A stretch of DNA of 64,000 nucleotides. It comes from an uncultured Gemmatimonadales bacterium. Lineage in GTDB: Bacteria > Gemmatimonadota > Gemmatimonadetes > Palauibacterales > Palauibacteraceae. Shown here piece by piece: positions 34,654 to 62,419 of this stretch; positions within the stretch are counted from its first letter, which is position 1, and each line of letters starts with the position of its first letter. The stretch spans positions 20,908 through 84,907 of the forward strand of contig CAWANJ010000002.1 in NCBI GenBank assembly GCA_963783385.1, read 5' to 3'. The translations under genes and the position numbers were made by a program. The notes below the pieces were generated by a model that made no database searches, was not told the origin of the DNA, and saw only the letters and a program-made list of their open reading frames with translations.

Positions 34654-36039
34654 TCAGTGGACCCGGCGCGCCCGGTCCGGGGAGCCGAGGGTGCGGAGCA
34701 CCCGGACCCAGGCAATGGCCTTGGTGGTCGGGTCGCGCTCGAACCACAGCCGTCGCTCGGTGCCGGAGACGAAGAAGGAGTCGGGCGCCGACGGCCGGAA
34801 CTCCAGCGTAGTCCCGCCCGGCGTCTTCAGGTGCAGGGCGCCGTCCGAGGCCGTGAGGCGAAGCGTGTCCCCCTCCGGGAAGCGGTACAGGCCGGCGCAG
34901 GCCGCGATCTCGGCCGGAGGCAGCCGGACGGAGCTCGGCTCCGGCGGCCGCAGGGCGGGGTCGTACAGCCACGCCACCTGGTGGGCGATGTGGGGCGTGG
35001 CCGCGCCGGCGAGGTTGGTGAGCACCGCCACCGTCACCGAGTCGTCCACGTAGCGGACGATGTGGGTGCTGAACCCCTGCCAGCCGCCGGCGTGCTCTAC
35101 GACCCAGTGGCCGGGCGTCCCGTGCACCTCCCAGCCGAACCCGTAGCTGGTGGTCGTGCCGTCGGCGAGGCGCACGGGGGTCCACATCTCCCGCTTCTCG
35201 TCCGATGTGAGAAACGCGTCCCCCGACAGCGCCGCGTCCCAGCGCGCCAGGTCCAGGACCGTGAAGTAGAGGGCCCCGTCGGCGGTGTGCTCCCAGGTGG
35301 GCGACACCCACGCCTGGTTGGCAAGCTGGCCGTCGTCGAGGACGTAGCCGGAGGCCCGGTTCGGGATGATGTCGGGGAGCCCGATCATGCGGGCCGTCTT
35401 CATGCCCAGCGGCGCGAACACCCGGTCGTGCAGGAAGCGGTTCCAGTGGGCGCCGGTCACCCGGTCGATGATGATGCCGAGGAGGACGTAGCCCGTGTTG
35501 CTGTAGCTCCACGTGGTGTCCGGCCGGAAGATGAGCGGCAGCCGCGCGAACAGGCGCGCGAGCTCCGCGTCCGTGTAGTCGCGCCGCAGGTCCACGATCG
35601 GGGGATCGGCGTTCTCGTAGTCCTGGATCCCGGACGTGTGGGTGAGGAGGTTCCGGATCGTGATCCCCTTCCACGCCTCGGCCCCCTCGGGCAGGTACTT
35701 CGTGATCGGGTCGTCCAGCGCCAGCTTCCCGTCACGAGCCAGGAGGAGGACCATGGCCGAGGTGAACTGCTTCCCGACCGAGCCGGACTGGAAGATCGTG
35801 TTGGGCTTCACCGGGACGTCCAGCTCCACGTCCGCGAGGCCGTAACCCTTCGCCTTCACGATCCGCCCCGCCCGGTAGATCCCGAGGGCGAGGCCCGGGA
35901 TGTGGTGGGCGTGCATGTACGCTTCGACCCAGGCGTCGATCGTATCGGAGGCGACCGATGGGGGCGGGGTGGCGGAGAGCGGCGTGGCCAGGACCAGCAG
36001 GGCGAGCGCGGCCGGCACGTGCAGGCGCCTGTGCGCCAT
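34654..36039 (-). CDS. serine hydrolase of the class-C beta-lactamase / PBP4b family (secreted)
   Basis: From ATG 36039 the signal peptide is MAHRRLHVPAALALLVLATPLSA. The SxxK active site is FQSGSVGKQFTSAMVLLL and a YxN motif region is present (WSYSNTGYVLLG). Confidence 0.8.
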   Translation of the reverse strand: MAHRRLHVPAALALLVLATPLSATPPPSVASDTIDAWVEAYMHAHHIPGLALGIYRAGRIVKAKGYGLADVELDVPVKPNTIFQSGSVGKQFTSAMVLLLARDGKLALDDPITKYLPEGAEAWKGITIRNLLTHTSGIQDYENADPPIVDLRRDYTDAELARLFARLPLIFRPDTTWSYSNTGYVLLGIIIDRVTGAHWNRFLHDRVFAPLGMKTARMIGLPDIIPNRASGYVLDDGQLANQAWVSPTWEHTADGALYFTVLDLARWDAALSGDAFLTSDEKREMWTPVRLADGTTTSYGFGWEVHGTPGHWVVEHAGGWQGFSTHIVRYVDDSVTVAVLTNLAGAATPHIAHQVAWLYDPALRPPEPSSVRLPPAEIAACAGLYRFPEGDTLRLTASDGALHLKTPGGTTLEFRPSAPDSFFVSGTERRLWFERDPTTKAIAWVRVLRTLGSPDRARRVH

Positions 36040-36329
36040 GGGCTTCTCCCTTCGAACGTGAACGGTGCGTGGACGCGCCGGCATGTCCCGGCTCGCCGCT
36101 CCTGGCAATGTCGAGGGGAGAGCCGGATCTGCCAACCCCCGGTGCCGATGGGCGAAAGCCCGGCGGCGGCGTGGCCCGGCGGGCGCCGGCGGAGCGAACT
36201 CCATTGCCGGCCTCGTGCCGCCCGGCCATGTTGGGCTCCGACCCGGTGCGACCCAGACGCGGACGGCCCGGCGCCTCGCGCCCGCTCCGCCCGCCGCGGC
36301 TCCCGCAGCTCTCGAGACAGAGGCTCCGC

Positions 36330-38693
36330 ATGCGCCAGCGCACGCTCCCGCTCGCTCTCCTGGCCCTGACCGCCCTCCCGCTGGCGGCGCGTCCCGCCCG
36401 CGGCCAGGCGCCCGTCCCGTACGCGCCCGACTCGGTCACGGCCGCCCGGTATGCGCATGCCGAGCGCTTCCTGCGCGCGGCCACGGCGCCCCTCGTGCTC
36501 CACGCGGACGTCAGGCCCACCTGGCTGCCGGACGGACGCTTGTGGTACCGGGTGCGGACGGCACGCGGGTTCGAGTTCGTCGTCGTCGACCCCGCGCGTC
36601 AGAAGAAGAGCTCCGCCTTCGACCAGGAGAAGGTGGCCGCGGCGCTGTCGGCGGCGGCGGACACGACGTACGACGCCTGGCACCTCCCCTTCCGGTCCTT
36701 CGAGTACGCGCGCGGCGGCAAGGCCATCACCCTCGAGGCGGGCGGGAAGGTCTACACGTGCGACGTCGGCGGAGCGAAGTGCACGGCCGGGAACGCGGCG
36801 TCGGAAGGACCGGGCCGCGACGTGGTCGTCTCCCCCGACGGGAAGCTCGGGGCCTTCCTCAAGGACTGGAACCTGTGGGTGCGCGACCTGGCCACCGGGA
36901 AGGAGACGCAGCTCACCACCGACGGGGTGAAGGATTTCGGCTACGCCACCAACAACGCCGGCTGGATCCGCTCCGACCGGCCCGTGATCCTGTGGTCCCC
37001 GGACTCGAAGCGGATCGCAACCTTCCAGCAGGACCAGCGCGGCGTCGGCGAGATGTACCTGGTCCACACGAAGATCGGCCACCCGACGCTGGACGCGTGG
37101 AAGTACCCGCTGCCGGGCGACAGCGTGATCACCACCATCCAGCGCGTCGTGGTCGACCTGGACGCCGCGGGCGGCCCGAAGGTCGTGCGGCTCGACATGC
37201 CCCCCGACCAGCACCGCTCCGGCGTGTGCGACCACGTGGCGTGCGGGCGTGGGAACCCGGCCGGCGACTTCGCCGACGTGCAGTGGAGCCCGGACGGCTC
37301 GCGGCTGTTCTTCGTGTCGACCTCCCGCGACCACCGGCACGAGACCCTGCGCGAGGCGGACCTTGAGACGGGAAAGGTGCGGGACATCCTGTCCGAGAGC
37401 GCGAAGGACTTCCTCGAGACCGGCTACAACCAGACCGACTGGCGGGTGCTCCCCTCGAAGAACCAGGTCATCTGGTACTCGGAGCGGGACGACTACGGGC
37501 ACCTGTACCTGTACGACCTGAGCACGGGGAAGCTGGAGCACCGGATCACCACGGGGCCGTGGAACGTGCTCCAGGTGCGGCGGGTGGACCCGGCCAGCGG
37601 CACGATCTGGTTCACGGGCGCGGGGCGGGAGCCCGGCGACCCCTACTTCCAGCGCTTCTACAGCGTGCGCACGGACGGGAGCCACCTCACCCTCCTCACC
37701 CCCGACAGCGCCGACCACCAGGTCACGATGTCGCCCGACGGGCGCTGGTTCGTGGACCGGGCCTCGACCCCGCAGACGCCGCCCACGACCGTGCTCCGCG
37801 ACGCGCGGGGCCGGAAGGCGATGGAGCTCGAGCAGGCCGACATCTCGCGGCTGCTGGCCGCCGGGTGGAAGCCGCCGGCGTCGATCACCGTGAAGGCGAG
37901 GGACGGGAAGACGGAGCTGTACGGGCTCCTGTTCACGCCGACGGACCTCGACTCGACGAAGGCCTACCCGATCGTGAACCACATTTACCCGGGCCCCCAG
38001 ACCGGGAGCGTGGGGAGCCGCAGCTTCGAGGCCTCGCGCGGCGACGCGCAGGCGCTGGCCGAGCTCGGCTTCGTGGTGGTCGAGATCGACGCCCTCGGGA
38101 CCCCGATGCGCTCCCACTCCTTCCAGGCGGCCTGGTACGGCGACATGGGCGACAACGGGCTCCCCGACCAGGTGGCGGGGATGAAGGAGCTGGCGGCGCG
38201 CCACCCGTGGATCGACCTGTCGCGGGCCGGGATCTACGGGCACTCGGGCGGGGGCTTCGCCACGGCGGACGCCATGTTCCGCTTCCCCGACTTCTTCCGC
38301 GTCGGGATCGCCGAGGCGGGGAACCACGACAACCGCGAGTACGAGGACGACTGGGGCGAGAAGTGGCAGGGCCTGCTGACCACCGGCCCGGACGGGAAGA
38401 CGAGCTACGACAACCAGGCCAACGAGCTCGTGGCCAGGAATCTGAAGGGGAAGCTCCTCCTGGCCTACGGTACCACGGACGACAACGTGCCGCCCTACAA
38501 CACGCTGCTCGTCGTGGACTCGCTGATCGCGGCCAACAAGGACTTCGACCTGATCGCGCTCCCCAATCGCCGCCACGGCTTCGGGGCCGAGCCCTACATG
38601 GTCCGCCGCCGGTGGGACTACTTCGTCCGGAACCTGCTCGGCGCCGAGCCCCCGCACGAGTTCCGGATCGGGGAGGGCGGCGACGGGGAGTAG
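36330..38693 (+). CDS. S9-family serine peptidase (DPP-IV-like prolyl oligopeptidase family) with N-terminal beta-propeller
   Basis: From ATG 36330 the signal peptide is MRQRTLPLALLALTALPLAARPARGQA. The C-terminal alpha/beta hydrolase has the nucleophile elbow GIYGHSGGGFAT, plus an Asp (TTDDNVPP) and a His (PNRRHGF). Confidence 0.85.
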   Translation: MRQRTLPLALLALTALPLAARPARGQAPVPYAPDSVTAARYAHAERFLRAATAPLVLHADVRPTWLPDGRLWYRVRTARGFEFVVVDPARQKKSSAFDQEKVAAALSAAADTTYDAWHLPFRSFEYARGGKAITLEAGGKVYTCDVGGAKCTAGNAASEGPGRDVVVSPDGKLGAFLKDWNLWVRDLATGKETQLTTDGVKDFGYATNNAGWIRSDRPVILWSPDSKRIATFQQDQRGVGEMYLVHTKIGHPTLDAWKYPLPGDSVITTIQRVVVDLDAAGGPKVVRLDMPPDQHRSGVCDHVACGRGNPAGDFADVQWSPDGSRLFFVSTSRDHRHETLREADLETGKVRDILSESAKDFLETGYNQTDWRVLPSKNQVIWYSERDDYGHLYLYDLSTGKLEHRITTGPWNVLQVRRVDPASGTIWFTGAGREPGDPYFQRFYSVRTDGSHLTLLTPDSADHQVTMSPDGRWFVDRASTPQTPPTTVLRDARGRKAMELEQADISRLLAAGWKPPASITVKARDGKTELYGLLFTPTDLDSTKAYPIVNHIYPGPQTGSVGSRSFEASRGDAQALAELGFVVVEIDALGTPMRSHSFQAAWYGDMGDNGLPDQVAGMKELAARHPWIDLSRAGIYGHSGGGFATADAMFRFPDFFRVGIAEAGNHDNREYEDDWGEKWQGLLTTGPDGKTSYDNQANELVARNLKGKLLLAYGTTDDNVPPYNTLLVVDSLIAANKDFDLIALPNRRHGFGAEPYMVRRRWDYFVRNLLGAEPPHEFRIGEGGDGE

Positions 38694-38725
38694 GACCCGG
38701 TGTCCTGGCCCGCTCGGGTTATGGC
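38447..38725 (+). repeat. copy 1 of a duplicated segment (3-prime end of the S9 peptidase gene plus about 30 bp downstream); the partner is 45495..45772
   Basis: About 90% nucleotide identity to 45495..45772 in the same orientation (GGGAAGCTCCTCCTGGCCTACGGTACCACGGACGACAACGTGCCGCCCTACAAC...). Confidence 0.7.
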
Positions 38726-38810
38726 CCTCTCAGCCGGGAGGGGAGCCGGTGCCTATCTGCTGGGCGAAAAGACGTAGGTGTGCTTCCCATCGCTCAAATG
38801 GAACGCTCCA

Positions 38811-39326
38811 TCACTGACTCGGCCCTCCAGCCATCAACTCGTCGCCGGCAGCGTCGACGAGAACGAGCGTGGTGCCATCCCAATCGTATTGTCCTGTCGA
38901 GCTGACGGCTCGCTGCTGGACCGAGCCTGAGGGATCCTGGAACTGGTTCGTGACGCTCATGGAGAACGCGCCCGTTTGACACTTCGACAGTTGATACGTG
39001 CTGCCATCGGGCAGCGTCACGAGGCCGGATGTGTCGACATGAGCGCCGTTCGGGACGTGATGAACGCATGCCTTCGGCATCCATCCGTCCGGCGTAGCCA
39101 CGCTGTCCTGTGACACGGCCTGGTCGAGCACGAGGGAACCCGCGACGAGTGTCGCGGTGCTGCCGGACGAATCCGTTGTCGTGCAGCATGGCAAACGACG
39201 AGCACCGTCGGCCGTCGTCAGCTCATACCGACCTGAAATGTCCTGGCCAGCGGCTGCTGGATTCGTCACCCCGCAGGCGCTCATTGCGAGTACTGACGTA
39301 ACGACAGCTACGACGGTTGTCTTCAT
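38811..39326 (-). CDS. hypothetical lipoprotein carrying a conserved Cys-motif domain shared with the upstream lipoprotein
   Basis: Lipobox MKTTVVAVVTSVLAMSAC. The domain ...ACVHHVPNGAHVDTSGLVTLPDGSTYQLSKC is shared with the 39476..40738 product. It lies in the lower-GC island. Confidence 0.5.
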   Translation of the reverse strand: MKTTVVAVVTSVLAMSACGVTNPAAAGQDISGRYELTTADGARRLPCCTTTDSSGSTATLVAGSLVLDQAVSQDSVATPDGWMPKACVHHVPNGAHVDTSGLVTLPDGSTYQLSKCQTGAFSMSVTNQFQDPSGSVQQRAVSSTGQYDWDGTTLVLVDAAGDELMAGGPSQ

Positions 39327-39475
39327 AGTATATCCTCCCAGTTGGGATCCTCGCCCGCTGAAGCCACGAGCACTCCGTTTCGTTTCCCAGTCGCGCGAGA
39401 TCTAGCGTGTCTCAACTTCCCGGCCGCCGTCCGTGTTCATGCGTAAGCAGTCCTCCGACGAGTCACACAGCTCGG

Positions 39476-40738
39476 CTACTGGCTTGAGCCGCTTCCGGAG
39501 GGCGCGAGCGGGCAACCCGAGCCGATGCAGACTTTGACGTGGTGGCTGGCGGTCGCCGTGTCGGGCGGAGAAACCGCAGTAAGATCCAGTGTGAAGCTCG
39601 TATCGTTAGCGTACACATAGCGTCTGTACGTGCTATCCGAGCCCACGCTCGAGCACGTCCCTCCGTCCGGGCAGAAGTCCCATGCATATGAGTAGCTCCC
39701 CGACCCGCCGCTAGGATTGGCCGACCACGTGTAGTTGCCTGCGGAGCTGATATAGCCGGTACCATTGATCCCAACGCTGAACGAGGGAACGTTGTGGTAG
39801 AGGTTCACCGTCGTGGCGGTATGGGTCGCGCTGAAATCACAGGATGGCGAAAGACCCGATGTTACATGGTTGTACCAGGTCGGAGAAAGACCGGTACCAT
39901 TGAGATCCTTGGTCGCAACGCCTGTGTAGAAGACCCCATTCTGCGGAAACTGACTGCATTGCGTCAGGCTGTAGACCTCGACGCCCCCCCCGCTTGCCCA
40001 GGTGTAGTTGTCGTTATCGTCCGCGGTCCAATCGGAGCGCGATCCTGTGATGACATCCACGAGAACGATGGTCCATGTGCAGGTCCCGTTCACGCAAGAG
40101 CTGGCCTGGACGCTACCATGGATGGAGTCCCCGGTAGTCGCCATGATGGTATCGCCGTGGAGACAGTCCGAGCCCGAGTTGCAGCGCCAAGAGGCCCCGC
40201 TCCAGAAGGAGCCGCCGTAGTCTCCGTTATACCCGTATTGGAGAACCGGTTGGATGATGTAGGAGCTGTTCTCAAGGCCTGGGAAGGTGTAGTAGACTTC
40301 CTGGCCGGAGTATGAGCCGCTGGGCTTTGCCGGCACCTTCCAGTCTGCGGTCAGCGTACCGAACGTATCGGACGAGAGCGTCGCCGAGTCCCACTCAAGC
40401 CAGCCGTTGAGGGACGGAGAGGCCACTGAATGCGAAGACCCCGCCCATTGCGGTAGGTTCGGGTGCGCTGGATGTGTACACGCGGGAAGTTGGAACGTCG
40501 AACCATCCGAACGTGTGACGCGCCCGTGAAGCCCGACGTGCGCGCCATTGGGAATCTGATGCACGCACGAACGGTCATACAATCCGGCGGGCGTGGCGAC
40601 ATAAGCGCCCTGACTTTCCATGGCTCCAAGGGACGCCCTAAGCCCCTTCGGTCCGGTGGGGTTCTTCTGATCCGAGCAGGCAACGGCCCCAAGCATTACG
40701 GCGATAACCAGTAGAGCTATGGGAGTTCGACCCTTCAT
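39476..40738 (-). CDS. hypothetical Cys/Gly/Ser/Trp-rich secreted lipoprotein (about 420 aa)
   Basis: From ATG 40738 the lipobox is MKGRTPIALLVIAVMLGAVAC. The N-terminal domain SCVHQIPNGAHVGLHGRVTRSDGSTFQLPAC is paralogous to the 38811 gene product. The large C-terminal region is rich in C, G, S, T, N, W and Y, suggesting a beta-sandwich carbohydrate-binding-like fold. About 60% GC. Confidence 0.55.
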   Translation of the reverse strand: MKGRTPIALLVIAVMLGAVACSDQKNPTGPKGLRASLGAMESQGAYVATPAGLYDRSCVHQIPNGAHVGLHGRVTRSDGSTFQLPACTHPAHPNLPQWAGSSHSVASPSLNGWLEWDSATLSSDTFGTLTADWKVPAKPSGSYSGQEVYYTFPGLENSSYIIQPVLQYGYNGDYGGSFWSGASWRCNSGSDCLHGDTIMATTGDSIHGSVQASSCVNGTCTWTIVLVDVITGSRSDWTADDNDNYTWASGGGVEVYSLTQCSQFPQNGVFYTGVATKDLNGTGLSPTWYNHVTSGLSPSCDFSATHTATTVNLYHNVPSFSVGINGTGYISSAGNYTWSANPSGGSGSYSYAWDFCPDGGTCSSVGSDSTYRRYVYANDTSFTLDLTAVSPPDTATASHHVKVCIGSGCPLAPSGSGSSQ

Positions 40739-40937
40739 GCCTGACCTCCCTCCGTGTTGCAGTCGGTCGCGTGCTGTGCGGCGATGTCGCTGCTCGTACC
40801 TCCTCAGCTTGCCATCGGTCATGCCGTATGTGTAACGTTTGAATTGAAGATTTGTGACAAACCCCGGGATCTGGTGGCGTTCAGATTCGGCGAAACTGCG
40901 TTGCGCTGGACCCCGGGGCAGCGGGAGGCTGGCTGGT

Positions 40938-41462
40938 GTGAACTACCGTGCCGCGTTTGCCCGGTACTACGAACCGCTCGTCCGCTACGCCTACACGCTG
41001 ATCGGAGACTCCGACCGGGCTGAGGATCTGGCCCAAGAAGCCTTTGCCCGACTGCTCGAGCAGGACCTTCCAGAGGCCAGCGTCCAGAGCTGGCTTTTCC
41101 GCGTAATCCGAAATCTCGTCCGAGACGGGACTCGCTCGCGGCGGCGGCGGCAGCGGCTACTCGCCGAGGCACGGCCGTACCACCGCCAAATCGACCCTCC
41201 TGATGTGGTGCTCGAGCGGAACGAGACCATTGAAAGGGTAAGCCGGGCGCTCTCGAAACTGCCGGAACGCGACCGCACGATGCTCCTCCTCCGACACCGG
41301 GGCTTCAGCTACGCCGAGATCGCCCAGCGCACAGGAGTAGCGCGAAGCTCGGTGGGGACGCTTCTGGCCCGAGCACTGCGCCGGTTCGAACGTGCCTATC
41401 AGAAGGGGAACGAGGATCGACCCGGCGACGCGGCCTCAAAAGCCGGAGGGAGCGTGGCATGA
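40938..41462 (+). CDS. ECF-type RNA polymerase sigma-70 family factor
   Basis: Region 2 (YEPLVRYAYTLIGDSDRAEDLAQEAFARLL...WLFRVIRNLVRDG) and region 4 (LPERDRTMLLLRHRGFSYAEIAQRTGVARSSVGTLLARALRRF). The GTG at 40938 follows a ggagg RBS. An alternative start is the ATG at 40854. Confidence 0.8.
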   Translation: MNYRAAFARYYEPLVRYAYTLIGDSDRAEDLAQEAFARLLEQDLPEASVQSWLFRVIRNLVRDGTRSRRRRQRLLAEARPYHRQIDPPDVVLERNETIERVSRALSKLPERDRTMLLLRHRGFSYAEIAQRTGVARSSVGTLLARALRRFERAYQKGNEDRPGDAASKAGGSVA

Positions 41463-42271
41463 CACTCAGGCCGACCGAGAGTGGCCACGTCTGTGACGGA
41501 ACGCTCATGGCTTTCCTCGATGAAGAGCTCAAGGCAGCGCAACGGGCCGCCGTGGGCCGCCATGTGCACGCGTGCCGTGCATGCGGCGAGCGGCTGGCAC
41601 GGCTGCGGACCGCGTCTAACCAGCTGTCTGGGGCGCTCCCAGCCCTGCACGACGATCCGGTCCTGCCAGCAGACGCCGTCTCCTTATCCCTGACTCCTCG
41701 CGCATTGACCGGGCGGCAGGGCCGGACGGGCCAAGCGCCGCGGAGTCGACGACGGCCCGTCAGCCCGCGTCGTCGGTGGCGGGCCGGTGTGTGGGCAGCA
41801 GCGCTGGTCGTTCTCTCCGCCGGAGCCCTGGCAGCTTTCCCCGGCTCCCCGGTGCACACCTGGCTGTCCCGGAAGCTAGGCGACCTGGCGCGAGGACAGT
41901 CGGCCGCCGCGCGTGGCTCTCCAACGCCGCCGCCGCCCGTGGTCTCCATCCTTCCCTACGAGGGATCGGTCACCGTACGACTCACCGGCACCACGTCCGC
42001 AACCCACGTCCATGTGCGGCTCGTGGCAGGCACCGAAGCCCGCGTCGAAGCGCCGGGCGCCACTTTCCGAGCGGGCCCTGGATTTGTAGACGTTTCGGAA
42101 GGGAGTGAAAGCGAACATATCACAATCGACCTCCCGCGAAGCGTCCGGTCCGCCCGCGTGGAAATCGACGGAAGGCTGGCGGTGATCAAGGATGGGGAGC
42201 TCCTCCGGCGTGTGGGAGCAGCCACGGGAACAAGCGACAGCTCCGTTGAGCTCGGGGGAGGAGTGCCATGA
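41459..42271 (+). CDS. zinc-finger (ZAS-type HxxxCxxC) transmembrane anti-sigma factor
   Basis: The start overlaps the sigma factor stop (ATGA). N-terminal HVHACRACGERL motif, a single TM helix AGVWAAALVVLSAGALAAF, and a periplasmic C-terminal domain. Confidence 0.65.
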   Translation: MTLRPTESGHVCDGTLMAFLDEELKAAQRAAVGRHVHACRACGERLARLRTASNQLSGALPALHDDPVLPADAVSLSLTPRALTGRQGRTGQAPRSRRRPVSPRRRWRAGVWAAALVVLSAGALAAFPGSPVHTWLSRKLGDLARGQSAAARGSPTPPPPVVSILPYEGSVTVRLTGTTSATHVHVRLVAGTEARVEAPGATFRAGPGFVDVSEGSESEHITIDLPRSVRSARVEIDGRLAVIKDGELLRRVGAATGTSDSSVELGGGVP

Positions 42272-42816
42272 CGCGGCTCCTCCTCGCGGTGCTGATCGTA
42301 CCGCTTCCGGCACGTCCAGCGCTTGGTGCGTGGTTGGAGGCGTCGACTGCGATGCGTTCCGTCTATGGGGGTCAGGGGAGCCTATCGACGCCACCGGCCG
42401 GTTCAGCCCCGTCAGCAGCCCACGCCGATACAACCGCAGGCAGTATCGCCGGGCGCCTATCCGCCAACGGAAGTGGCCCCCCGCTGGCCTCGGCGACCGT
42501 CGAGGCCCAGGGCCCGGGCGGCTCCCGCGTGATCCATGCGAACGTGGACGGCGTCTACCGAATCTTGGGACTCAAGCCCGGAGTGTGGTGGCTAAGCGCG
42601 CGCGCCCTCGACTACGCCTCGACGAAGGTCGCGGTTACACTTCCCGCGGGCGGCCACGTGAAGCTCAACCTCGCTCTTGACCTCCAGCCCGTAACTCTGC
42701 CGAGCCTGAAGGTCGCAGCAAAGCGCCGATGTGTCGGCGGCACGCTCCGCATTCGGGAATGGGAACCCGCTCGAAGCAGCGCAGGCGGCAGACCTCCTGA
42801 GCCTCAGCCCGGCTAG
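42268..42816 (+). CDS. CarboxypepD_reg-like domain protein, probably the N-terminal part of a TonB-dependent-receptor-like outer membrane protein interrupted by a frameshift
   Basis: Signal peptide MTRLLLAVLIVPLPARPALGA. CarboxypepD_reg domain GSIAGRLSANGSGPPLASATVEAQGPGGSRVIHANVDGVYRILGLKPGVWWLSARALDYASTKVAVTL. The start overlaps the anti-sigma stop. Its 3-prime end overlaps the next ORF in another frame. Confidence 0.5.
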   Translation: MTRLLLAVLIVPLPARPALGAWLEASTAMRSVYGGQGSLSTPPAGSAPSAAHADTTAGSIAGRLSANGSGPPLASATVEAQGPGGSRVIHANVDGVYRILGLKPGVWWLSARALDYASTKVAVTLPAGGHVKLNLALDLQPVTLPSLKVAAKRRCVGGTLRIREWEPARSSAGGRPPEPQPG

Positions 42817-44566
42817 CGCCTCCGCGACGGTTGACCTCTCCACAGCGGCACGCGGCGTCTTAGCTGGGGCGCCGCAGACGAAGGCGAGCACCCTCTTCAT
42901 GCCGGCGGCAGCGCGGAATGGCGGACGAGTCCTGCTGGACGGGGCGCCGGTTGTGGCTCCCGTGGAGCTTGCCGGACTCCTGTCACCTTTCCCGGCCGGG
43001 GTCTGGGGCACGGTACAGCTCGATCGGGCCGGCGCGCCCGTTCGTTTCGAGGCAGGCGGCATGGGCCTCCTCCGCCTCGACACCCGGGAGCCGAGAGGCC
43101 ACGCGATCCGAGCGTCCGGCTCCCTGGGGCAGCTGCAATCAACCCTGCAGGCTGCGGGTCCTCTAGGAGAGGGCGACTTCCTCGTCGGTGCCCGGGCGCT
43201 GAGCGCGGCCGGTTCCGCTTTTCCAACCGGCTCGAGAGGCTCATTGCCCTACGGGTACGCGGACGTGCTGGCCCGCCTGGACCTTCCGGCTGGCCCGGGC
43301 AGGGTGTCTGCGACGGGCTACTGGAACCGCGAGTCGCTCAGCGGCCCCGGATCGGCCAGCGCTTCGCTCCTGGCGTGGGGAAACACTGCAGGGTCCGTCC
43401 GCTATGTGGTACCTATCGGCCGGGGCGGCATGCGACTGAACGCGGCAGCCGGACGATTCCGGATCGCCGTGCCAGGGGGTAACGCAGAAGCCAAACTTCG
43501 GGAACACTCATTCGATGCACGAGCCGAGGCGGAGGTCTTTGGCCGCGCGGGTCCGGTGGACGTGACCGGCGGCCTCGCGTGGGACGGGGTGCGGCTGTCG
43601 CGCACGGCCCTCGACTCCGCCGATGGCGCGCCGCCCGTTCCTGGGGCCAACCTGGCGGGCGGCGTCGTATCACCCTATCTGGAGGTCAACGTCGACCTGA
43701 CCCCGGCCCTCTCTCTGCGAACCGGTCTGCGGGCCGAGGCCGCCAGCTACGGCGCCCTCGGCTGGGACCCAAGGGCCACTCTGGAGTGGCGTGCGGGACC
43801 CCGGCTATCCGTGTACGCAGCCGCCGGGCGTTCGCACCAGCTCGTGGAGCGTGAAAGCGTCACGGGCTGTGATCCGGCCTCAGGGGTTTGCGGAGCGAGC
43901 AGCCTGTTCCTCGACGGAGCAAGCCATGTGGCTGCCGGCTTCAAAGCCCGGCCGTCGGTCCCGTTGACCCTCGGCCTCGATATGTACTTGGCAAACTACG
44001 GGGAGGCCGTCACCGCTCTGCGGGCCAGGTCAATCGGAGCTGAGATCCGCGGAACGTGGCGAGGGGACGGCTGGAGCACGTGGCTCGACTACTCGCTGGC
44101 CAGCACCCGGTCGTCTGAGCCACTCGGGATCGGCGGCGGCGCAGCACAGTTGGAGCAGCGACTCCTCGCTGGCTTCTCCGCCGAGATTCCCCCGGCCATC
44201 CACGTGGCGCTCCGGCTCCGGGTGAGCGCCGGCTTACCATACACTCCCCTTCCGATAGTGGGCTCGACATCTTCCGCAGGTGCGGGGTCCGGATATCCCT
44301 GGCCCGTAATAAGTCCCCCGGGCTCCGGCGGACAGCCGTCCGCACTCGCACTGCCGGGATCATGGGCGCGGCTAGACGGAACGGTCTCTCGAAGCTGGCA
44401 CGCCCGCGTCTTCGGCGCCGACGTGATGCTCACTCCCTACCTTGAGGTCCTGAACGCCGCCGGAACAAGAGACGCGCCGTTCTACTGGAGCCGCTCCGGC
44501 GCTGCGCAGCGATCAATTGGTGCCGTGCCGCTCCTGGCGGCTGTCGGCGTGCGCTGGGGACTCTAG
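42731..44566 (+). CDS. outer-membrane beta-barrel (TonB-dependent receptor-like) C-terminal part
   Basis: 611 aa rich in G, S, A and aromatics with alternating beta-strand patterns and a C-terminal ...AAVGVRWGL (terminal aromatic then L). The plug-like N-terminus (NPLEAAQAADLLSLSPASA) follows the CarboxypepD_reg ORF in a different frame. Together they span 766 codons, the size of one receptor gene. Confidence 0.5.
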   Translation: MSAARSAFGNGNPLEAAQAADLLSLSPASASATVDLSTAARGVLAGAPQTKASTLFMPAAARNGGRVLLDGAPVVAPVELAGLLSPFPAGVWGTVQLDRAGAPVRFEAGGMGLLRLDTREPRGHAIRASGSLGQLQSTLQAAGPLGEGDFLVGARALSAAGSAFPTGSRGSLPYGYADVLARLDLPAGPGRVSATGYWNRESLSGPGSASASLLAWGNTAGSVRYVVPIGRGGMRLNAAAGRFRIAVPGGNAEAKLREHSFDARAEAEVFGRAGPVDVTGGLAWDGVRLSRTALDSADGAPPVPGANLAGGVVSPYLEVNVDLTPALSLRTGLRAEAASYGALGWDPRATLEWRAGPRLSVYAAAGRSHQLVERESVTGCDPASGVCGASSLFLDGASHVAAGFKARPSVPLTLGLDMYLANYGEAVTALRARSIGAEIRGTWRGDGWSTWLDYSLASTRSSEPLGIGGGAAQLEQRLLAGFSAEIPPAIHVALRLRVSAGLPYTPLPIVGSTSSAGAGSGYPWPVISPPGSGGQPSALALPGSWARLDGTVSRSWHARVFGADVMLTPYLEVLNAAGTRDAPFYWSRSGAAQRSIGAVPLLAAVGVRWGL

Positions 44567-44632
44567 GACGGAACGGCCCGTCGTCGAATCTGTCGGCTCG
44601 AACCTCAGGAAGGCGGCTCTCCCAATGAGAGA

Positions 44633-44672
44633 GCTCCGAGCTTCCGTTCGGAGCTTCCCGGCTGTGAGCCGG
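44633..44672 (+). terminator. tandem GC hairpins downstream of the receptor-like gene
   Basis: The 7-bp stem gctccga-gcttccgt-tcggagc is immediately followed by ccggc-tgtga-gccgg, 67 nt past the stop at 44566. Confidence 0.35.
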
Positions 44673-44959
44673 CACGAACGACGGTCGGGTCCGGTGTACA
44701 GAACAGCCTTCGGTTGCGCCGGTGCTTGCTCTCACCGGACTCAATCGCAACTACATCTAATCCGAAGCGACAGATACGAGATTCTCGGTACTCGCGAAGG
44801 TGCCAATCGTCGATCCTCCTGAATTGTCACTACGGAGTGCAGTTTCCGGGCAGTATTGGCACGGGGGAACCTCATGCACCGCCTGCAACGCCGCAGTCCC
44901 AACTGAGAATGGAAGCCAACCTCACGACAGTACTGGGCCCGAGCGGCGCGGACTGGCAC

Positions 44960-45494
44960 CACGAGGGCCACGCTCATCAACGCCATGGCCAGAATCTGAA
45001 TGGCACGCTTCCCGATACCCTACTCACCAAGGTGTCGAGCTCACACTCTCGATCAAGTCCTGTGAAATCGGAAACGTGTCAACTCGGAGGCGGTCCGAGC
45101 CGTACGGCCCCGACGCATTGCGAACCGACACCGCCGGGCTCCGCCCCTCAGCCCCCCGGCACCACCAGCCCGATCCCCTTCGAGGCCATGGCCGCGTTGA
45201 AGGCCGGCACGGTCGTGCCCACGAGCCGCTCGAAGTCGGCCCGCGCCTTCTCCAGCCGCCCTTCGAGGAGGTGGAAGACCTCGATGTCCTGCGTGGTGGG
45301 TGCGAGGTCGGGGCTCCCGGCCACGTCGCCCGCGCCGTCGCCCACCTCGCCGGCCAGCCACACGAGCTTGAGGTAGAGCTTCATCTCGGCCGGATACGTC
45401 TTGACGTCCCCGGCGGCCAGGTAGCGCTGGAACAGGAGGTCCTCGACGGCGAGCGCGCTGTCGTCCACGGCCCGGGCGGCCTCCATGACCGACA
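44960..45494 (-). repeat. displaced duplicate (about 88 to 90% identity) of 47975..48527: the 3-prime end of the BNR/sortilin-like gene plus its downstream intergenic region and the start of the next gene
   Basis: Colinear nucleotide similarity, for example ...TCATCAACGCCATGGCCAGAATCTGAATGGCACGCTTC... against ...TCATCAACGCCATAGCCAGAATCCAAATGGCTCGCTTC... Similarity continues through CGACGCATTGCGA...GGCCTCCATGACCGAC and ends abruptly at 45494. Confidence 0.7.
45148..45486 (-). pseudogene. truncated copy of the C-terminal ~110 codons of the BNR/sortilin-like protein (compare 48176..48514)
   Basis: The translation MEAARAVDDSALAVEDLLFQRYLAAGDVKTYPAEMKLYLKLVWLAGEVGDGAGDVAGSPDLAPTTQDIEVFHLLEGRLEKARADFERLVGTTVPAFNAAMASKGIGLVVPGG is near-identical to the C-terminus of ORF 48176..48919. 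No N-terminal part is present. Confidence 0.7.
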
Positions 45495-45740
45495 GGGAAG
45501 CTGCTCCTGGCCTACGGGACCACGGACGACAACGTGCCGCCCTACAACACGCTGCTCGTCGTGGACTCGCTCATCGCGGCGGGCAAGGACTTCGACCTCA
45601 TCGCGCTGCCCAACCGGCGGCACGGCTTCGGGGCCGAGCCCTACATGGTCCGCCGGCGGTGGGACTACTTCGTCCGAAACCTCCTGGGCGCCGAGCCCCC
45701 GCACGAGTTCCGGATCGGGGAGGAACGCGGGGAGGAGTAG
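45495..45740 (+). pseudogene. truncated copy of the last ~80 codons of the S9 peptidase gene (compare 38447..38693)
   Basis: The translation ...LLLAYGTTDDNVPPYNTLLVVDSLIAAGKDFDLIALPNRRHGFGAEPYMVRRRWDYFVRNLLGAEPPHEFRIGEERGEE matches the end of the S9 peptidase at 36330..38693. It is joined directly to the BNR-gene fragment at 45494/45495. Confidence 0.7.
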
Positions 45741-45776
45741 GATAGGATGTTCTGGTCTGCACCCGCTACGGAGCGT

Positions 45777-46607
45777 CTAGCCTGGAGGAGCGCCCGTATA
45801 GGATTTCAGCCAGAGGACGATGGCACCGCAGCGCATCGACACCTCGGTGGTCAGCTCGGGCGGAAGCTGGTCGGGCGGGTAGATCTCGACGGCGGTCACG
45901 TCGTACTTGGGGTAATAATCGGCGGGGCGCCCGGTCACGGTCTGGGCGCGGTTCCTGAGCCAGTCGGCTCGCCGACCATTCACAAAGTACTGGGGCTCGC
46001 AGTACTTGCCCAGCGGCCGACGCATCTTCGTGCCGGGGCCGTAGACGTTGCGGGTGGCCAGCAGCGTGCCCAGCTCACCGTGATAGCGCTCAATGTCCCG
46101 CTCCGTGACGAGCTGCCCTCGGCCCGCCGCCACGCGTCGCTCGAACCTTTCCAGTGCGCCGGGCGTTCCGCGCACAGTGGCCCGGAGCTCCTCTTGAGGT
46201 ATCGGCTTGACGGGAACTTCAATGTCGGCCGTGAGGGTCTCTCCGGGGCGCAGGGTGGTCCCACGCTGCACCGGGGCCGACCCGAGGAAGTCGACCTCGA
46301 TCGTGATCCGTCCCGGCTTCACGTCGGCGAACCGGTAGCGCCCATCCTTGCCGGTGAACGCAGTCCGCTCTCGATCGACAAGCTCCACCCGTGCCCCCTC
46401 GACCGGCGAGTGGAAGTCCGCTCGCGTGATCGTGCCCTGGACGACGGCTCCCGTGTCGATCGCCGCCTTCCAGCCTCCGATCGCGGCTCTCCGCGGCGCA
46501 CGGACGGCGCGCAGCGCGGGAGCGCCCGTGAGGATTATGCTGGCTACGGCGGCGACCGAAGCTATTCCGAGCGACGGCGACCAACTGGGGTGCCTCGGGA
46601 GCCTCAA
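45777..46607 (-). CDS. secreted CarboxypepD_reg-like domain protein
   Basis: Signal peptide MRLPRHPSWSPSLGIASVAAVASIILTGAPALRA. Domain VQGTITRADFHSPVEGARVELVDRERTAFTGKDGRYRFADVKPGRITIEVDFLG. A ~150-aa C-terminal region follows. Confidence 0.6.
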   Translation of the reverse strand: MRLPRHPSWSPSLGIASVAAVASIILTGAPALRAVRAPRRAAIGGWKAAIDTGAVVQGTITRADFHSPVEGARVELVDRERTAFTGKDGRYRFADVKPGRITIEVDFLGSAPVQRGTTLRPGETLTADIEVPVKPIPQEELRATVRGTPGALERFERRVAAGRGQLVTERDIERYHGELGTLLATRNVYGPGTKMRRPLGKYCEPQYFVNGRRADWLRNRAQTVTGRPADYYPKYDVTAVEIYPPDQLPPELTTEVSMRCGAIVLWLKSYTGAPPG

Positions 46608-47811
46608 GACCCCGCACCTTCAGCCTGCCCTGTGCCTCGGCCCGGGCCCGCGTTCAGCTCCGGCGCCAGGACCTGCAATCGCGTGTCTCCGGCCGAGGTC
46701 TGCACCACGCTGAAGGCGAGGCTGGTGCCGCAAACGCTCCCCAGCACCGAGTCGACGCGGCGCCGGGCCAGCACCCTGGGTGGTCCGGCGCCAGCGATGT
46801 CCAGCACCTCGACGATCGTGTCGAACTGGCCTCGGAAGAAGCGTGGGGAAGTCGGCTTTGGGTCCGCAGTCGCCCAGTGAGCGTCCGGAATCAGCGCATA
46901 CACCCAAAGTCGGCCCTGGTTGTCCAGCGCGAGCGCGTTCATCATGGCGGGAGGCGGACCCAAAGTATAGAGATCGCTGAGCCGCTTCGGCGAGAGGTCC
47001 TGTGTCGTGGGAAACCAGTCAGCGCGTCGAATTAGGACCCGCGTGACTGCACGGTCGTCGGACCAATGATAGAGTGCGTAGCGCCATAGGCCCGCGGCCC
47101 AAAAACCGCCCTGCTGATCGGGTGCGAGAATCCATTGGTCCAGCGGTCGTAGCCGGGACGATGGCTCCCCAAACGACGCAGGGTGTCCCCGGACGGATCG
47201 AGGAGTTCAAAGAGGCGCGTGTCGCCCTCGCTCGCTCCCAGCGGACGGCTGTGGACGAGGATGGTATCGGGCCCGATCAAGGCCAGGTCACTCACGGGTC
47301 GACGAGTGCGGAACAGATGGGCCACCCGGCCCGCCAATGTCAGGGTGACCATCCGTGCGTTCGAGTTGTCGGCCACATATAGCGTGTCCCCGCGGCCGAC
47401 CAGCACCCTTAGGTGCGAGCCAAATTCACGCGGTCCTGCCCCCGGGCCTCCAATGTCTCGAGAGAAGCGCCCGTGACGACTGTAGACGGCAAGCTGACCG
47501 CCTCCTACTATGGCGCTAACGACGAAGCGGCCCGATCCAAGCCGTCCAACGGAGCAGGCGCGGAACGGTGCGTCCGCCATGATAGAGGCCGGATCCTCGG
47601 AGCTCCCAAGTTGCACGACCGAATCCAACGTGATCGACCCGGCCAGCCGCTGTGCTGTTTCGACCAAGGCAGGCCTGACGTCCGTGTGGAAACGGCTGTT
47701 GCCAGGCTGTGTGTCAGGTGGTGTCGAACGACCACATGCGGTGGATAGTAGACTGAGGCCAGTCCCAGCAAGACAGAGAGCCCTCGGTCCCCTACAAATG
47801 AATCCGAGCAT
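46604..47811 (-). CDS. six-bladed beta-propeller-type lipoprotein (paralogue of 56434..57621), reading frame interrupted around 46963 to 47032; possible pseudogene
   Basis: N-terminal part ORF 47032..47811 (lipobox MLGFICRGPRALCLAGTGLSLLSTAC). C-terminal part ORF 46604..46963 in another frame. Both parts align with the intact 56434 gene (GGPGAGPREF against GDGPGEF, and LWVYALIPDA against DVWARRLLPDT). The combined length of 402 codons matches the paralogue. Confidence 0.55.
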
Positions 47812-47974
47812 TCCGCGAAGGATGCGGGCGCCTAGTGGGTGGGGTCTAGCAGATGTCTGGGCCCCGGAACTTCCTCCGGCCCTCCCACTCGGCGGCATGT
47901 AGATGTGGATGGGCAACCGCACTCTCCCGGGACGGCCCACCACTCGCGTCGTGAATCCCACTGAAATTCTAGGG

Positions 47975-48527
47975 GCGAACCAACGCCCTGAGATACCTTC
48001 ATCAACGCCATAGCCAGAATCCAAATGGCTCGCTTCATGGCAGTCTTCTTACCGAAGGGTTGACCTCAACCCATCTTCATCAATTTCGACAAATTTGACA
48101 ATGTGTCAACACCGACCCGGTCCAAACCCACTCCACTCCGACGCATTGCGAGTCGATATCGTCGGGCGCCGCCCCTCAGGCCCCCGGCACCACCAGCCCG
48201 ATGCCCTTCGACTCCATGGCCGCGTTGAAAGCCGGAACGGTCGTGCCCACGAGGCGCTCGAAATCGGCCCGCGCCTTCTCGAGCCGCCCCTCGAGGAAGT
48301 GGAACACCTCCACGTCCTGCGTGGTGGGGGCGAGGTCGGGACTCCCGGCCACGTCGCCGGCGCCGTCGCCGACCTCGCCGGCCAGCCACACGAGCTTGAG
48401 GTAGAGCTTCATCTCGGCCGGGTAGGTCTTGACGTCCCCGGCGGCCAGGTAGCGCTGGAACAGGAGGTCCTCGACGGCGAGCGCGCTGTCGTCCACGGCC
48501 CGGGCGGCCTCCATGACCGACGCCGAG
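47975..48527 (-). repeat. copy 2 (in situ) of the duplicated segment whose displaced partner is 44960..45494
   Basis: See 44960..45494. Confidence 0.7.
48095..48109. promoter_or_regulatory. perfect palindrome TTGACA-atg-TGTCAA in the intergenic region upstream (minus-strand sense) of the beta-propeller lipoprotein locus
   Basis: 6-3-6 inverted repeat whose half-site equals the sigma-70 -35 consensus. It lies about 57 nt upstream of the conserved MKRAIWILAMALMKV start at 48038. A partial copy (cgtgtcaac) is kept in the displaced repeat at about 45066. Confidence 0.35.
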
Positions 48528-51394: not shown

Positions 51395-53548
51395 CACTTC
51401 CCTCCCAGTCCGACCTGCCGCATGGCGAACGCCTGCTCCATGGCCTGGTCCTCGATCGAGACGTCGAACGGCCGCCCCCGGCCCGCGGCGTGTCCCTCGC
51501 GGGCACGGAGCCGGTAGATCACCGGGAGGCCCGAGGTGGTGGCGTGCTGGAGCTCCGCCGCGAAGCCGCGGCCCTGCCGCGGCGGGACCCGGGTGTCGTG
51601 GCCGCCCGAGAACACGAACACGGCCGGGTAGCGGGTGCCGTCGGTCACGTGCTCGTAGGGCGAGAACGCCTCCAGCCAGCGGAACTGGACCGGGTCGGCC
51701 GCGTCCCCGTACTCGTGGATGGCGGGCATGTTGTTGCGGTGCGTGAAGGTCACGAAGCGGTCCATGTCGAGGTCGGGGAAGCCGCACAGCACGGCCCGGA
51801 ACAGCTCCGGGCCCCTGCGTGACCGCCGCGCCCATGAGGAGCCCGCCGTTGCTCTCGCCGTGGATGGCCAGGGTGGAGGGCTTCCGTGTAGCCCCGGTCC
51901 TCCAGCCAGCGGGCCGCGGCCAGGAAGTCGTCGAACACGTGCTGCTTGTTCTTCAGCATGCCCCCCTCGTGCCACGCCTCCCCGAACTCGCTCCCACCCC
52001 GCAGGTTGGCCAGGGCCCAGATCCCGCCCCGCTCGGCCCACAGGGCCGCCTCGGCGCTGAAGTGCGGGGTGATGGCCACGTCGAAGCCGCCGTAGCCGGT
52101 GAGCATGGTGGGCACGGGCTTCCCGGCCGGGAGGTCCCGCCGGTGCACCAGGAACATCGGCACCCGCGTGCCGTCCTTCGACGCGGTACCACACCTGCTC
52201 GACCTCGATCCCCGCCGAGTCGAAGGGCACGCGCGAGGGCTCGTACACCGTGCGCTCGCCGGTCTTCGGGTCGAGGACGTAGGTGACGCCGGGGCTCGTG
52301 AACGAGCGCACGGACAGGAACGCCTTCCCGCCCGGGGCCGGCCGGATGCTGGCGCTGGACAGCGGCGGCAGCGGCACTTCGCCCTCCGGCGTCCCATCCA
52401 GTCCGAAGATCCGGATCCGGGCCGACACGTCGTGCAGGTAGGTGGCGTAGATCTTCTTCCCGATGAAGGCGTAGCCGGTGAGCACGTCGCCGGTCTGGGG
52501 CAGGATCTCCCTCCAGCCGTCCGGGCCGGGCCGGGAGGGATCGGCCACCACCAGCCGGTAGCGGGGCGCCAGCCAGTCGGTGAGGATCCACAGCTTGCCG
52601 TCGTGCGGCGCGGATCCGCGCGTGCATCGGGAGCCCGCCGGTCACCGACACGCGGTGGCTACCGTCGGCGTCCTCGATCCACGCCTCGTCCCGCAGCCAC
52701 CCCACCGCCTCGGTGACCAGGCGGCGGCCGTCCTCCAGGGTGCGGACGCCCACGAAGCGGTCCGGCCCGGCGTGCGGGTCGTAGACCACGGAGTCCCCGG
52801 CCGGGTCGGTGCCGAGGCGGTGCCGGTACAGCCGCGAGCCCGTCTCCCGGGAGCGCAGCACGTAGGTGATGGCGCGGCCGTCCGGCGCGAAGGAGGCCTC
52901 GTCGTACAGGGCGGGCGGGAAGCGGTCGGGGAGGTCCGTCCCCCGGCCCACGTCGCGCACCCGGAGGGCGGTCTCGTCCGCGCCCCCGTCACGGAGGTCG
53001 TAGAGCACCAGGCGCCCGTCGTGGGACACGTCCCGGAGCTCGACCCGCGTCCACCCGGTCGAGTCGATCGCCAGCGGGTCCACGACCTCCTCGTACTTCC
53101 CGTCCGGGTCGACCGGGACGATCGAGTCCGCCGGCGGGGCGGGGCGGCGGAAGATGCCGGCCACGGGATCGCCCGGCCGGCGAAGGCTGAAGTACTCCCA
53201 CTTCCCGGCGCGGCGCGGACTCCCGATCTGGGGCACGTCCTCCAGCCGCCGGAGCTCGGCCCGCAGCGAGTCGCGCAGCGGCGTCTCGCCGACCACCCGC
53301 TCGGCGTAGGCGCTCTCGGCCGCGATCCACGTCTTCACCTCCGGGGCGCTCCCGTCGGCCAGCCACAGGTAGGGGTCCGAGAATCGCTGGCCGTGCACCG
53401 TGAAGGTGGCCGTGTCGCGGCGGGTGGCGGGCGGCTGCGGGGCCGATCCCGCCGAGCCGGCGGGCCGGCAGCCCGCCGCGATGCAGGCGAGGGCCGTCGC
53501 GAGGAGGAGGGAGGGGAGGCCGGCGCGACGGCGGGATGCTCTCGGCAT
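51394..53548 (-). CDS. S9A prolyl oligopeptidase family lipoprotein, about 718 codons; the frame is interrupted at least three times, so it is a possible pseudogene or carries indel errors
   Basis: Start 53548, lipobox MPRASRRRAGLPSLLLATALACIAAGC. N-terminal propeller (HGQRFSDPYLWLADGSAPEVKTWIAAESAYAE...) in ORF 51953..53548. The catalytic domain is split between ORF 51750..52397 (LTGYGGFDVAITPHFSAEAALWAERGGIWALANLRGGSEFGEAWHEGG) and ORF 51394..52551 (PELFRAVLCGFPDLDMDRF...VFVFSGGHDTRVPP). The stop TGA overlaps the downstream BNR ATG (TGATG). Confidence 0.6.
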
Positions 53549-62031: not shown

Positions 62032-62419
62032 GGAGGCTCCTGGTTTGCGGTCGGCGGGGTGCCGGCGGCCTCCAAGATCGTGGGCACGGGCCGGCGGCGC
62101 GAGCGCTTCCCACGGACCGGCAGCCGGGCCCCGATCCGGGAGCTCGGTCCCGGTCCTGGTTCGGCCCCCCGTTCCCACGCCTCCGAAGGCGGGGGCCGCC
62201 GTGAGCCTGGTGGCGTCTACCTGTACGCGCGGGAGGCGTTCGGTCCGCGCGAGCTGGGCCGCATCCACCCTCGCCCTCCTCGGGAGCTCGAGCCGTGCGA
62301 GCCTCGTGGCGGGGGGCGTGGCGCTCCTGGCCGGGGCGGGGCTGTACCTGTTCCGGAGGACGCCCGCCGCGGACCCGGCGGTCTCGCCCCCCTCCCAGGC
62401 TCGCCTCGCACGCCCCGAT

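Follow-up and report, generated by a model that had tools for sequence, protein, structure and literature searches.

The 64,000-nt stretch of DNA analysed here (the window; all feature coordinates refer to it) comes from an uncultured Gemmatimonadales bacterium from soil and carries foreign DNA between two conserved, convergent genes, one for an S9 peptidase and one for a sortilin/BNR-repeat protein. This DNA probably represents two allelic versions of a single variable locus that come from different lineages and were joined by illegitimate recombination. The locus was ordered as the S9 end, cassette A and a copy of the BNR end, followed by a copy of the S9 end, cassette B and the BNR end; the first three elements would form unit 1 (38448-45493) and the last three unit 2 (45495-48521). 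Cassette A (38696-44824) held two lipoprotein genes and an operon in which an ECF sigma factor and a ZAS anti-sigma factor are encoded together with a TonB-type barrel that has a CarboxypepD_reg domain. Cassette B (45743-47998, minus strand), with a GC content at third codon positions (GC3) of 0.70-0.82, was 99.2% identical to positions 7354-9610 of L001, the closest relative (L-numbers denote compared contigs and loci from other assemblies).

Displaced copies of the flanking gene ends mark the inner limits of the two units. R2 copy 1 (38448-38695, plus strand), which is the genuine S9 3' end, was 91.5% identical in self-BLAST to R2 copy 2 (45495-45742, plus strand), a displaced segment with the final 246 nt of that gene, stop codon included, and a GC3 of 0.976. 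For the BNR gene, R1 copy 2 (47999-48521, minus strand) is the genuine 3' end with its downstream DNA, contiguous with the gene body and 93.3% identical to L001; it matched R1 copy 1 (44974-45493, minus strand), made up of the last 346 nt of the gene (45148-45493) and approximately 175 nt of downstream sequence, at 87% identity. Sequence comparison placed a single filler base, A, at 45494, where the displaced BNR end meets the displaced S9 end head to tail. No microhomology was found at this 45493/45495 junction, only the one extra base, and the junction was identical in L084, a contig from another assembly. The preliminary description had reported an 800-bp mosaic of displaced gene fragments here; the fragments were confirmed, and they resolved into orderly head-to-tail copies of the BNR and S9 3' ends, not random debris.

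Differences between the copies were not spread randomly over codon positions. In R2, 15 of the 21 differences fell at third positions and were mostly synonymous; in the coding part of R1 the corresponding count was 16 of 20, again mostly synonymous, and the open reading frame (ORF), its stop codon and a GC3 of 0.965 were retained. The non-coding part of R1 copy 1 was only 73% identical to copy 2. Because truncated fragments cannot be under selection, these differences would have arisen in working genes of separate lineages, as the mostly synonymous changes and the intact reading frames suggest. The displaced gene ends thus most likely diverged under purifying selection, as parts of functional genes in another lineage. 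An exact-protein look-up returned no record of the 86-aa ORF in the S9 fragment or of the truncated BNR ORF.

The topology equals a tandem duplication of the interval 38448-48521, yet the two interiors were unrelated, with no similarity detected by self-BLAST. A duplication in situ in an ancestor, followed by drift of the copies and independent replacement or deletion of the interiors, would explain the homology-free head-to-tail junction, which is a classic signature of tandem duplication by illegitimate recombination; both BNR ends also share protein states that are missing from L001. The dissimilar interiors argue against such a history, as does the pattern of divergence: truncated fragments cannot function, yet 70-80% of the differences were at third positions, and frames, stop codons and a GC3 of approximately 0.97 remained intact. 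Further, the repeats still contain perfect runs, the longest of 53 nt and 96 nt, and repeats of this kind are unlikely to persist through 6-9% divergence. We therefore consider duplication in situ unlikely. The same perfect runs mean that homologous recombination could collapse the tandem to either single allele; two independent k-mer contigs covering A and B (L081 and L087, respectively) broke inside the repeats, and breaks exactly at these positions fit such a collapse.

These breaks may also be taken as a branching assembly graph and a sign of strain heterogeneity, in which case the assembler would have concatenated two strains, one with S9-A-BNR and one with S9-B-BNR, and no cell would contain the tandem. 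The contig does have consensus problems, with three 1-nt insertions missing from L081 and L084, at least ten more at 48.8-52.6 kb and others at 60-62 kb. However, the junction connects an internal point of the BNR gene to an internal point of the S9 gene, and a graph bubble would need reads that contain it. The 9.5-kb contig L084 (assembly ERZ25039549) was 100% identical to the window across the junction and both fragments, while its cassette B differed at approximately 25 sites, 14 of which carried the L001 allele, so that L084 represents another haplotype and is not the same consensus assembled again. A strain with S9-A-BNR only was never found. An assembly artefact is thus very unlikely.

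Comparison with relatives showed what the site looks like without cassette A. L001, which was also recovered as L083, was 93-94% identical to the window at the nucleotide level across the S9 and BNR genes. After its S9 stop codon came a 2.26-kb cassette B with two genes, one for a CarboxypepD_reg protein of 276 aa and an intact one for a protein of 452 aa, then 0.8 kb with a thioredoxin/DsbA-like gene, then the convergent 1093-aa BNR gene. L082, L085 and L099 had the same arrangement as L001. The order S9, B, dsbA-like gene and BNR, with no cassette A, was seen in L001, L082, L083 and L085, and the S9-BNR spacing was 3.1 kb in the closest relatives (L001, L082 and L085). In the more distant L028 and L068, the S9 and BNR genes converged nearly adjacent to each other. 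No homologue of any cassette A protein was present among 80 S9-linked loci, and the best non-self homologues of these proteins were 43-68% identical. Gene order thus differed between the window and its relatives, as the preliminary description had anticipated, and cassette A is an insertion relative to the nearest of them, missing at the same locus in close relatives. In this Gemmatimonadota lineage, the gap that separates the S9 gene from the BNR gene is an accessory locus of variable content, and its whole content is foreign by codon usage.

The composition of the locus set it apart from the rest of the window, whose mean GC was 71%. The GC of 38726-44959 was 65.5%, approximately 7 standard deviations under the mean of 415 other 6.2-kb segments of the window (72.2 +/- 0.94%, minimum 69.3%) and below every one of them. 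A fall to 58-62% over this whole interval had been described; the dip itself was confirmed, and values in that range occurred only at 38.7-40.9 kb (60.9%) and 44.57-44.97 kb (61.4%), while the ECF operon (40938-44566) had a GC of 68.9%. GC3 is a clearer signal of foreignness than GC: each gene from 38.7 to 48.0 kb had a GC3 of 0.70-0.82, versus 0.93-0.98 in native genes. Runs with no high-GC3 frame covered 38716-45165 and 46786-48225, and the longest such run elsewhere in the window was approximately 0.5 kb. The tetranucleotide distance to the remainder of the window reached z = 8-9.5 at 38.5-41.5 kb, with the peak of 9.5 at 39-41 kb. Since z stayed at 2.4-4 out to 48.5 kb, the anomaly extends to approximately 48.0 kb, about 3 kb past the right limit of 44.96 kb given previously, and the island does not end there; the second foreign cassette, B, continues up to 47998. 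Composition and codon usage therefore differ from the host genome and the flanks, in line with the earlier expectation.

One could ask whether low GC3 is intrinsic to accessory genes in native DNA that are weakly expressed or under relaxed codon selection. In three other high-GC genomes, homologues of the large lipoprotein of cassette A had a GC3 of 0.68-0.80 and their neighbours one of 0.85-0.97, as this explanation would predict. The sigma/anti-sigma/barrel trio speaks against it, with a native-like GC3 of 0.83-0.95 in L094-L096 versus 0.71-0.76 in the window; cassette A was missing from relatives at 93% identity, and the non-coding DNA of the region was likewise GC-poor. Intrinsically low GC3 is therefore extremely unlikely as the general cause. 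Horizontal acquisition of the region is supported, although no mobility genes are present. That foreign DNA lies between the S9 and BNR genes was correctly recognised in the preliminary description; its boundaries and its picture of a single cassette did not hold.

Cassette B comprised two genes on the minus strand. The first (45777-46607) encoded a 276-aa CarboxypepD_reg-domain protein recognised by Pfam, and the second (46604-47961) a 452-aa NHL-like propeller protein with a weak NHL match, which was intact in L001 and frameshifted near 47179 in the window by a 1-nt deletion that was also present in L087. The DsbA-like gene was absent from the window, where an 806-bp deletion with no useful microhomology had occurred. 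Loss of this neighbour and the frameshift suggest that cassette B is decaying in this strain. In L001 the thioredoxin/DsbA-like lipoprotein gene (9581-10219, minus strand, GC3 0.62) lay between cassette B and the BNR gene. Cassette B of L084 was a mosaic of window-type and L001-type variants. Approximately 9 kb to the right of the locus, at 57172-57420 (minus strand) in DNA of native composition, a weak paralogue of the 452-aa protein was observed (37% identity over 86 aa).

Between the window, the L001 group and L097, cassette B was conserved at 99.1-99.5% identity, whereas the adjacent S9 ends differed by approximately 7%. The last S9 mismatch sat 7 nt before the stop codon, where the near-identity of B begins. 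On the BNR side the identity also switched near the stop codon of the gene; in the non-coding DNA downstream of BNR, unit 2 was 95.5% identical to L001 and unit 1 was 73% identical to either. Cassette B thus behaves as if it had recently been exchanged between lineages, judging from these identities. Such edges in at least three flank backgrounds would be expected if A and B were mobile cassettes inserted site-specifically after the S9 stop codon by a recombinase encoded elsewhere, with the scar as a by-product. However, A and B had no terminal inverted or direct repeats and no common end motif (motifs shared by their ends were 7-10-mers at chance level), and folding of the four boundary regions gave no unusual hairpins (z between -0.3 and +0.6). 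B was found only at the S9/BNR locus and at no other. Plasmid and phage collections contained no match for cassette A, viral contigs contained none for the lipoprotein family, and nothing resembling A or B was seen in these collections; no recombinase was encoded nearby. Site-specific insertion of this kind is highly improbable.

The region also lacked the other usual signs of mobility. The called genes left no room for an integrase or transposase, and none of the region's genes had such a Pfam domain, in agreement with the preliminary description. Direct repeats in the region were only the copies of the flanking gene ends, so that none resembled att sites, and an Rfam scan of 38-49 kb gave no match. 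Integration linked to a tRNA gene was rejected; the sole tRNA of the window was at 22.4 kb, 16 kb away.

We prefer the reading in which alleles of two different lineages were joined. A related lineage with the other allele would have contributed DNA that was added to the resident locus, not swapped in, and two routes are conceivable. A circularised fragment reaching from inside the S9 gene to inside the BNR gene could have integrated by a single homologous crossover. Alternatively, a linear fragment could have recombined homologously at one end, within the BNR gene, and been joined illegitimately at the other. Several observations weigh against this reading. An allele with cassette A only (S9-A-BNR) was not found anywhere, and the status of A as an alternative allele is deduced from structure. 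The data favour neither unit as the resident one; each of the two S9 ends had 18 mismatches to L001, and the two BNR ends were similarly far from it. The sharp edges of near-identity in B, within approximately 10 nt of the S9 stop codon, are unlike those of plain homologous recombination. In each host examined, the family of the large lipoprotein had a low GC3, which makes composition a weak argument for a recent arrival of the lipoprotein pair. Finally, the tandem is known from assembled contigs alone, the two assemblies with the junction may come from related samples, and a 24-mer spanning the junction was absent from JGI metagenomes.

The operon of cassette A began with an ECF sigma factor of 174 aa (40938-41462, plus strand; gene model from L081; GC3 0.73), recognised by Pfam Sigma70_r2 and r4_2 and by NCBIfam sigma70-ECF. 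It was followed by a ZAS-type anti-sigma factor of 270 aa (41459-42271, plus strand), which overlapped each neighbour by 4 nt. Its match to zf-HC2 was weak (18.6 bits versus a Pfam cut-off of 22.2), and the zinc motif H35-x3-C39-x2-C42 with C12 could be read from the translation. One hydrophobic, membrane-type segment was located at approximately residues 107-127, followed by a beta-rich outer domain, and the sole non-self homologue found was 55% identical. The third gene (42268-44566, plus strand) encoded a 765-aa protein with a CarboxypepD_reg domain and a barrel like that of a TonB-dependent transporter. In the window, a 1-nt insertion near 42754 left two separate ORFs in its place. The gene was a single 765-aa ORF in L081 and a single gene in L084 (called at 725 aa), and the split between a CarboxypepD_reg ORF and a barrel ORF is thus absent from both. 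Pfam matched CarboxypepD_reg, and the barrel scored 25.7-26.4 bits, just below the 27-bit cut-off. In Foldseek, an AlphaFold2 (AF2) model of the barrel protein (mean pLDDT 68) matched PirA, YncD, BtuB and FepA at E-values of approximately 1e-9 to 1e-10, and the matches to the barrel fold of TonB-dependent transporters were at E = 4e-10 to 1e-9. The gene content named in the preliminary description (an ECF sigma factor, a ZAS anti-sigma factor, a CarboxypepD_reg domain and a barrel) was confirmed by Pfam, with zf-HC2 and the barrel scoring below their cut-offs. To the right of the operon, the cassette ended in non-coding DNA of 61% GC (44567-44973); its last part, 44825-44973, was a diverged remnant of the region downstream of BNR in the relatives, 78.5% identical to L001 10269-10416.

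The trio was not confined to this locus. The order sigma, anti-sigma and barrel was repeated beside housekeeping genes in three unrelated neighbourhoods (L094, L095 and L096), and the closest relative of the barrel protein (68% identity) also came after an anti-sigma gene. These operons, with a zf-HC2 anti-sigma factor and a CarboxypepD_reg barrel of approximately 750 aa, were located at L094 5576-9232, L095 5637-9313 and L096 5758-9286, in Gemmatimonadota-like genomes. Upstream of the sigma gene, a candidate ECF-type promoter motif, TAACGTTT-N12-TGTGAC, was present at 40833-40858 (plus strand), with a putative function; it occurred as a single copy in the window, where none was expected by chance, and also upstream of the homologous operon in L094. 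It was not found before the lipoprotein genes, and therefore nothing ties the lipoproteins to the regulon. A scan for sigma-70 promoters and terminators gave nothing above chance.

From these features, cassette A appears to contain an autoregulated envelope-signalling operon, with the lipoprotein pair transcribed divergently from it. The membrane-bound ZAS-type anti-sigma factor would restrain the ECF sigma factor until it is freed by a signal, and this signal would probably involve the co-transcribed CarboxypepD_reg/TonB-type outer-membrane barrel. Only gene order couples the barrel to the anti-sigma factor, which counts against this account. Neither STN, Plug nor FecR-family domains were detected in the operon proteins (Pfam, E <= 1), and the trio would therefore work like a cell-surface signalling module while not being a member of the FecIRA group. 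PF07715 is recorded in some members of the barrel family, and the AF2 model had low confidence at residues 143-250. A literature search for the sigma/ZAS/CarboxypepD_reg context found nothing specific, and the main text of the ECF reclassification paper makes no mention of a sigma/anti-sigma/barrel operon.

The other module of cassette A consisted of two lipoprotein genes on the minus strand. The small lipoprotein (38753-39326; GC3 0.70) had 190 aa in other assemblies and 171 aa in the window, where a 1-nt insertion at 38816 truncates it; it had no Pfam or NCBIfam match. The large lipoprotein (420 aa, 39476-40738; GC3 0.72) had a pro-domain-like N-terminus, a core like that of G1 peptidases (eqolisins) and a C-terminal Ig/PKD-like domain. 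That the two are paralogues, as first described, was confirmed by a common 79-residue segment with 43% identity (E = 2e-13). The AF2 model of the large protein (pLDDT 86.6) had scytalidoglutamic peptidase 2ifw (E = 9.5e-9, TMt 0.69) and neprosin as its top Foldseek matches; the eqolisin beta-sandwich entries 2ifw, 2ifr and 1s2b matched at E-values of approximately 1e-8 with a TMt of 0.68-0.69, and the C-terminus matched Ig-like chains. Q163 and E254 were invariant in 38 sequences of the family and are candidates for the catalytic dyad, their equivalence being judged by motif resemblance. The predicted structure thus points to a glutamic-peptidase-like enzyme. Pfam Peptidase_A4 did not match the large lipoprotein and matched 3 of the 38 relatives weakly (best E = 5.7e-4), and no Pfam or NCBIfam model that detects the family was found.

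This family (approximately 410 aa; relatives P0001-P0218) comprised approximately 1000 representative clusters at E <= 1e-30. In other genomes, the usual partner of the large lipoprotein was a small protein of approximately 165-190 aa that shares only the N-terminal segment, not the sigma module. The trio occurred without lipoproteins and the pair without the trio, so that the 'self-contained' signalling cassette of the preliminary description falls apart into two modules with different histories. The large-lipoprotein family has either been transferred repeatedly or is intrinsically atypical in its codon usage. The low-GC3 homologues were located at L089 8001-9293, L091 8001-9485 and L092 8001-9224.

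Both flanking genes were native. The S9 peptidase gene (DPP-IV-type; 35958-38693, plus strand) had Pfam matches to DPPIV_N and Peptidase_S9, a GC3 of 0.975 and 92.9% nucleotide identity to L001, and the relatives of its protein were overwhelmingly from metagenome-assembled genomes of Gemmatimonadota. These coordinates give the longest ORF; the true start is probably near 36.3 kb. The sortilin/BNR-repeat gene (48176-51394, minus strand) had a GC3 of 0.96-0.99 in each frame segment, with its frame broken by several 1-nt insertions, while in L082 and L083 the orthologue was intact, encoded 1093 aa and matched Sortilin-Vps10.

Many of the apparent frameshifts in the window are probably errors of the long-read consensus and not pseudogenes, since three of the insertions were contradicted by L081 and L084. 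The 6.5-kb k-mer contig L081 (run ERR11523667) was 99.9% identical to 38647-45161 and had none of the three 1-nt insertions of the window; L084, from a third assembly, also lacked all three. Within this interval, 1-nt insertions of the window were noted at 38816, near 42754 and at 44908. When they were removed, the CarboxypepD_reg and barrel ORFs became the single 765-aa gene and the small lipoprotein had its 190 aa. At 48779-52606, at least ten 1-nt insertions relative to L001 split the BNR gene and a prolyl oligopeptidase gene into pieces with a GC3 of 0.96-0.99. That these flank genes are pseudogenes was rejected as the principal interpretation; all changes were 1-nt insertions, the GC3 of the pieces was native, and the three insertions that could be checked were missing elsewhere. 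The Pfam pieces of the prolyl oligopeptidase fell in three frames, and a PD40-repeat gene at 60353-62268 was spread over at least two reading frames.

Genomic islands without integrases that lie between core genes, at recombination hot spots also called regions of genomic plasticity, are usually explained by exchange through homologous flanks. Like them, the present locus has an atypical composition, sharp limits, differing cargo and no mobility genes, and is missing in close relatives. It differs in that two alternative cargoes are present at once, parted by copies of the flanking 3' ends, which would amount to a preserved intermediate state, and in that the near-identity of cassette B ends within approximately 10 nt of the flanking stop codon. 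Transformation can yield merodiploids; Johnston et al. (2013, PMC3784515) describe duplications of 100-900 kb that form when copies of a repeated element, IS861, pair alternatively. In both cases incoming DNA is added, and a tandem of two locus versions results that homologous recombination can resolve; here, however, units of 7 kb and 3 kb meet at a repeat-free junction and the lineages are 6-9% apart. The type of event, gain of an island at a recombination hot spot, is already well known, and current views are not overturned.

The proteins of cassette A can likewise be compared with known systems. The anti-sigma gene immediately follows the gene for its ECF sigma factor, as is the case for the ZAS anti-sigma factors RsrA, ChrR and RslA, and we take the pattern C12/H35-x3-C39-x2-C42 to be a zinc-binding pattern at positions like those of RsrA. 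Unlike these proteins, the one in the window includes a membrane segment as well as a periplasmic domain of approximately 140 aa that is rich in beta structure and belongs to no known family. The barrel shares an N-terminal CarboxypepD_reg domain with the SusC-like proteins of Bacteroidota. In contrast to FecI-FecR-FecA, the anti-sigma factor is of ZAS type and not FecR type, and the barrel has neither STN nor a Plug recognisable by Pfam; in contrast to both this system and the Bacteroidota modules, sigma factor, anti-sigma factor and barrel are encoded in one overlapping operon that is conserved in Gemmatimonadota-like genomes. The large lipoprotein resembles glutamic peptidases (eqolisins, MEROPS G1, Peptidase_A4; neprosin, G3) in its predicted fold and its invariant Gln and Glu. 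It differs from them as a bacterial lipoprotein with an extra Ig/PKD-like C-terminal domain, with a small paralogue here that has the N-terminal part only, with 10-18% sequence identity to the solved enzymes and with no Pfam model that detects it.

A bolder interpretation joins two ideas, that the S9/BNR site is a cassette-exchange site and that the trio is an undescribed system for signalling from the outer membrane to the cytoplasm, common in Gemmatimonadota; we regard the combination as quite unlikely. Cassettes with edges at both stop codons may then move without their flanks and with no recombinase of their own, and the tandem scar may be a trapped intermediate.

In the preferred reading of two alleles joined by illegitimate recombination, the locus shows turnover of accessory DNA at a hot spot in a little-studied phylum, with no mobile-element genes involved. 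The two alleles would stand side by side, and the scar would show that the second was added by an illegitimate join and not swapped in; through the remaining direct repeats, homologous recombination could return the tandem to either single allele. Two components deserve annotation in their own right: the widespread family of glutamic-peptidase-like lipoproteins and the three-gene module of sigma factor, ZAS anti-sigma factor and CarboxypepD_reg barrel.

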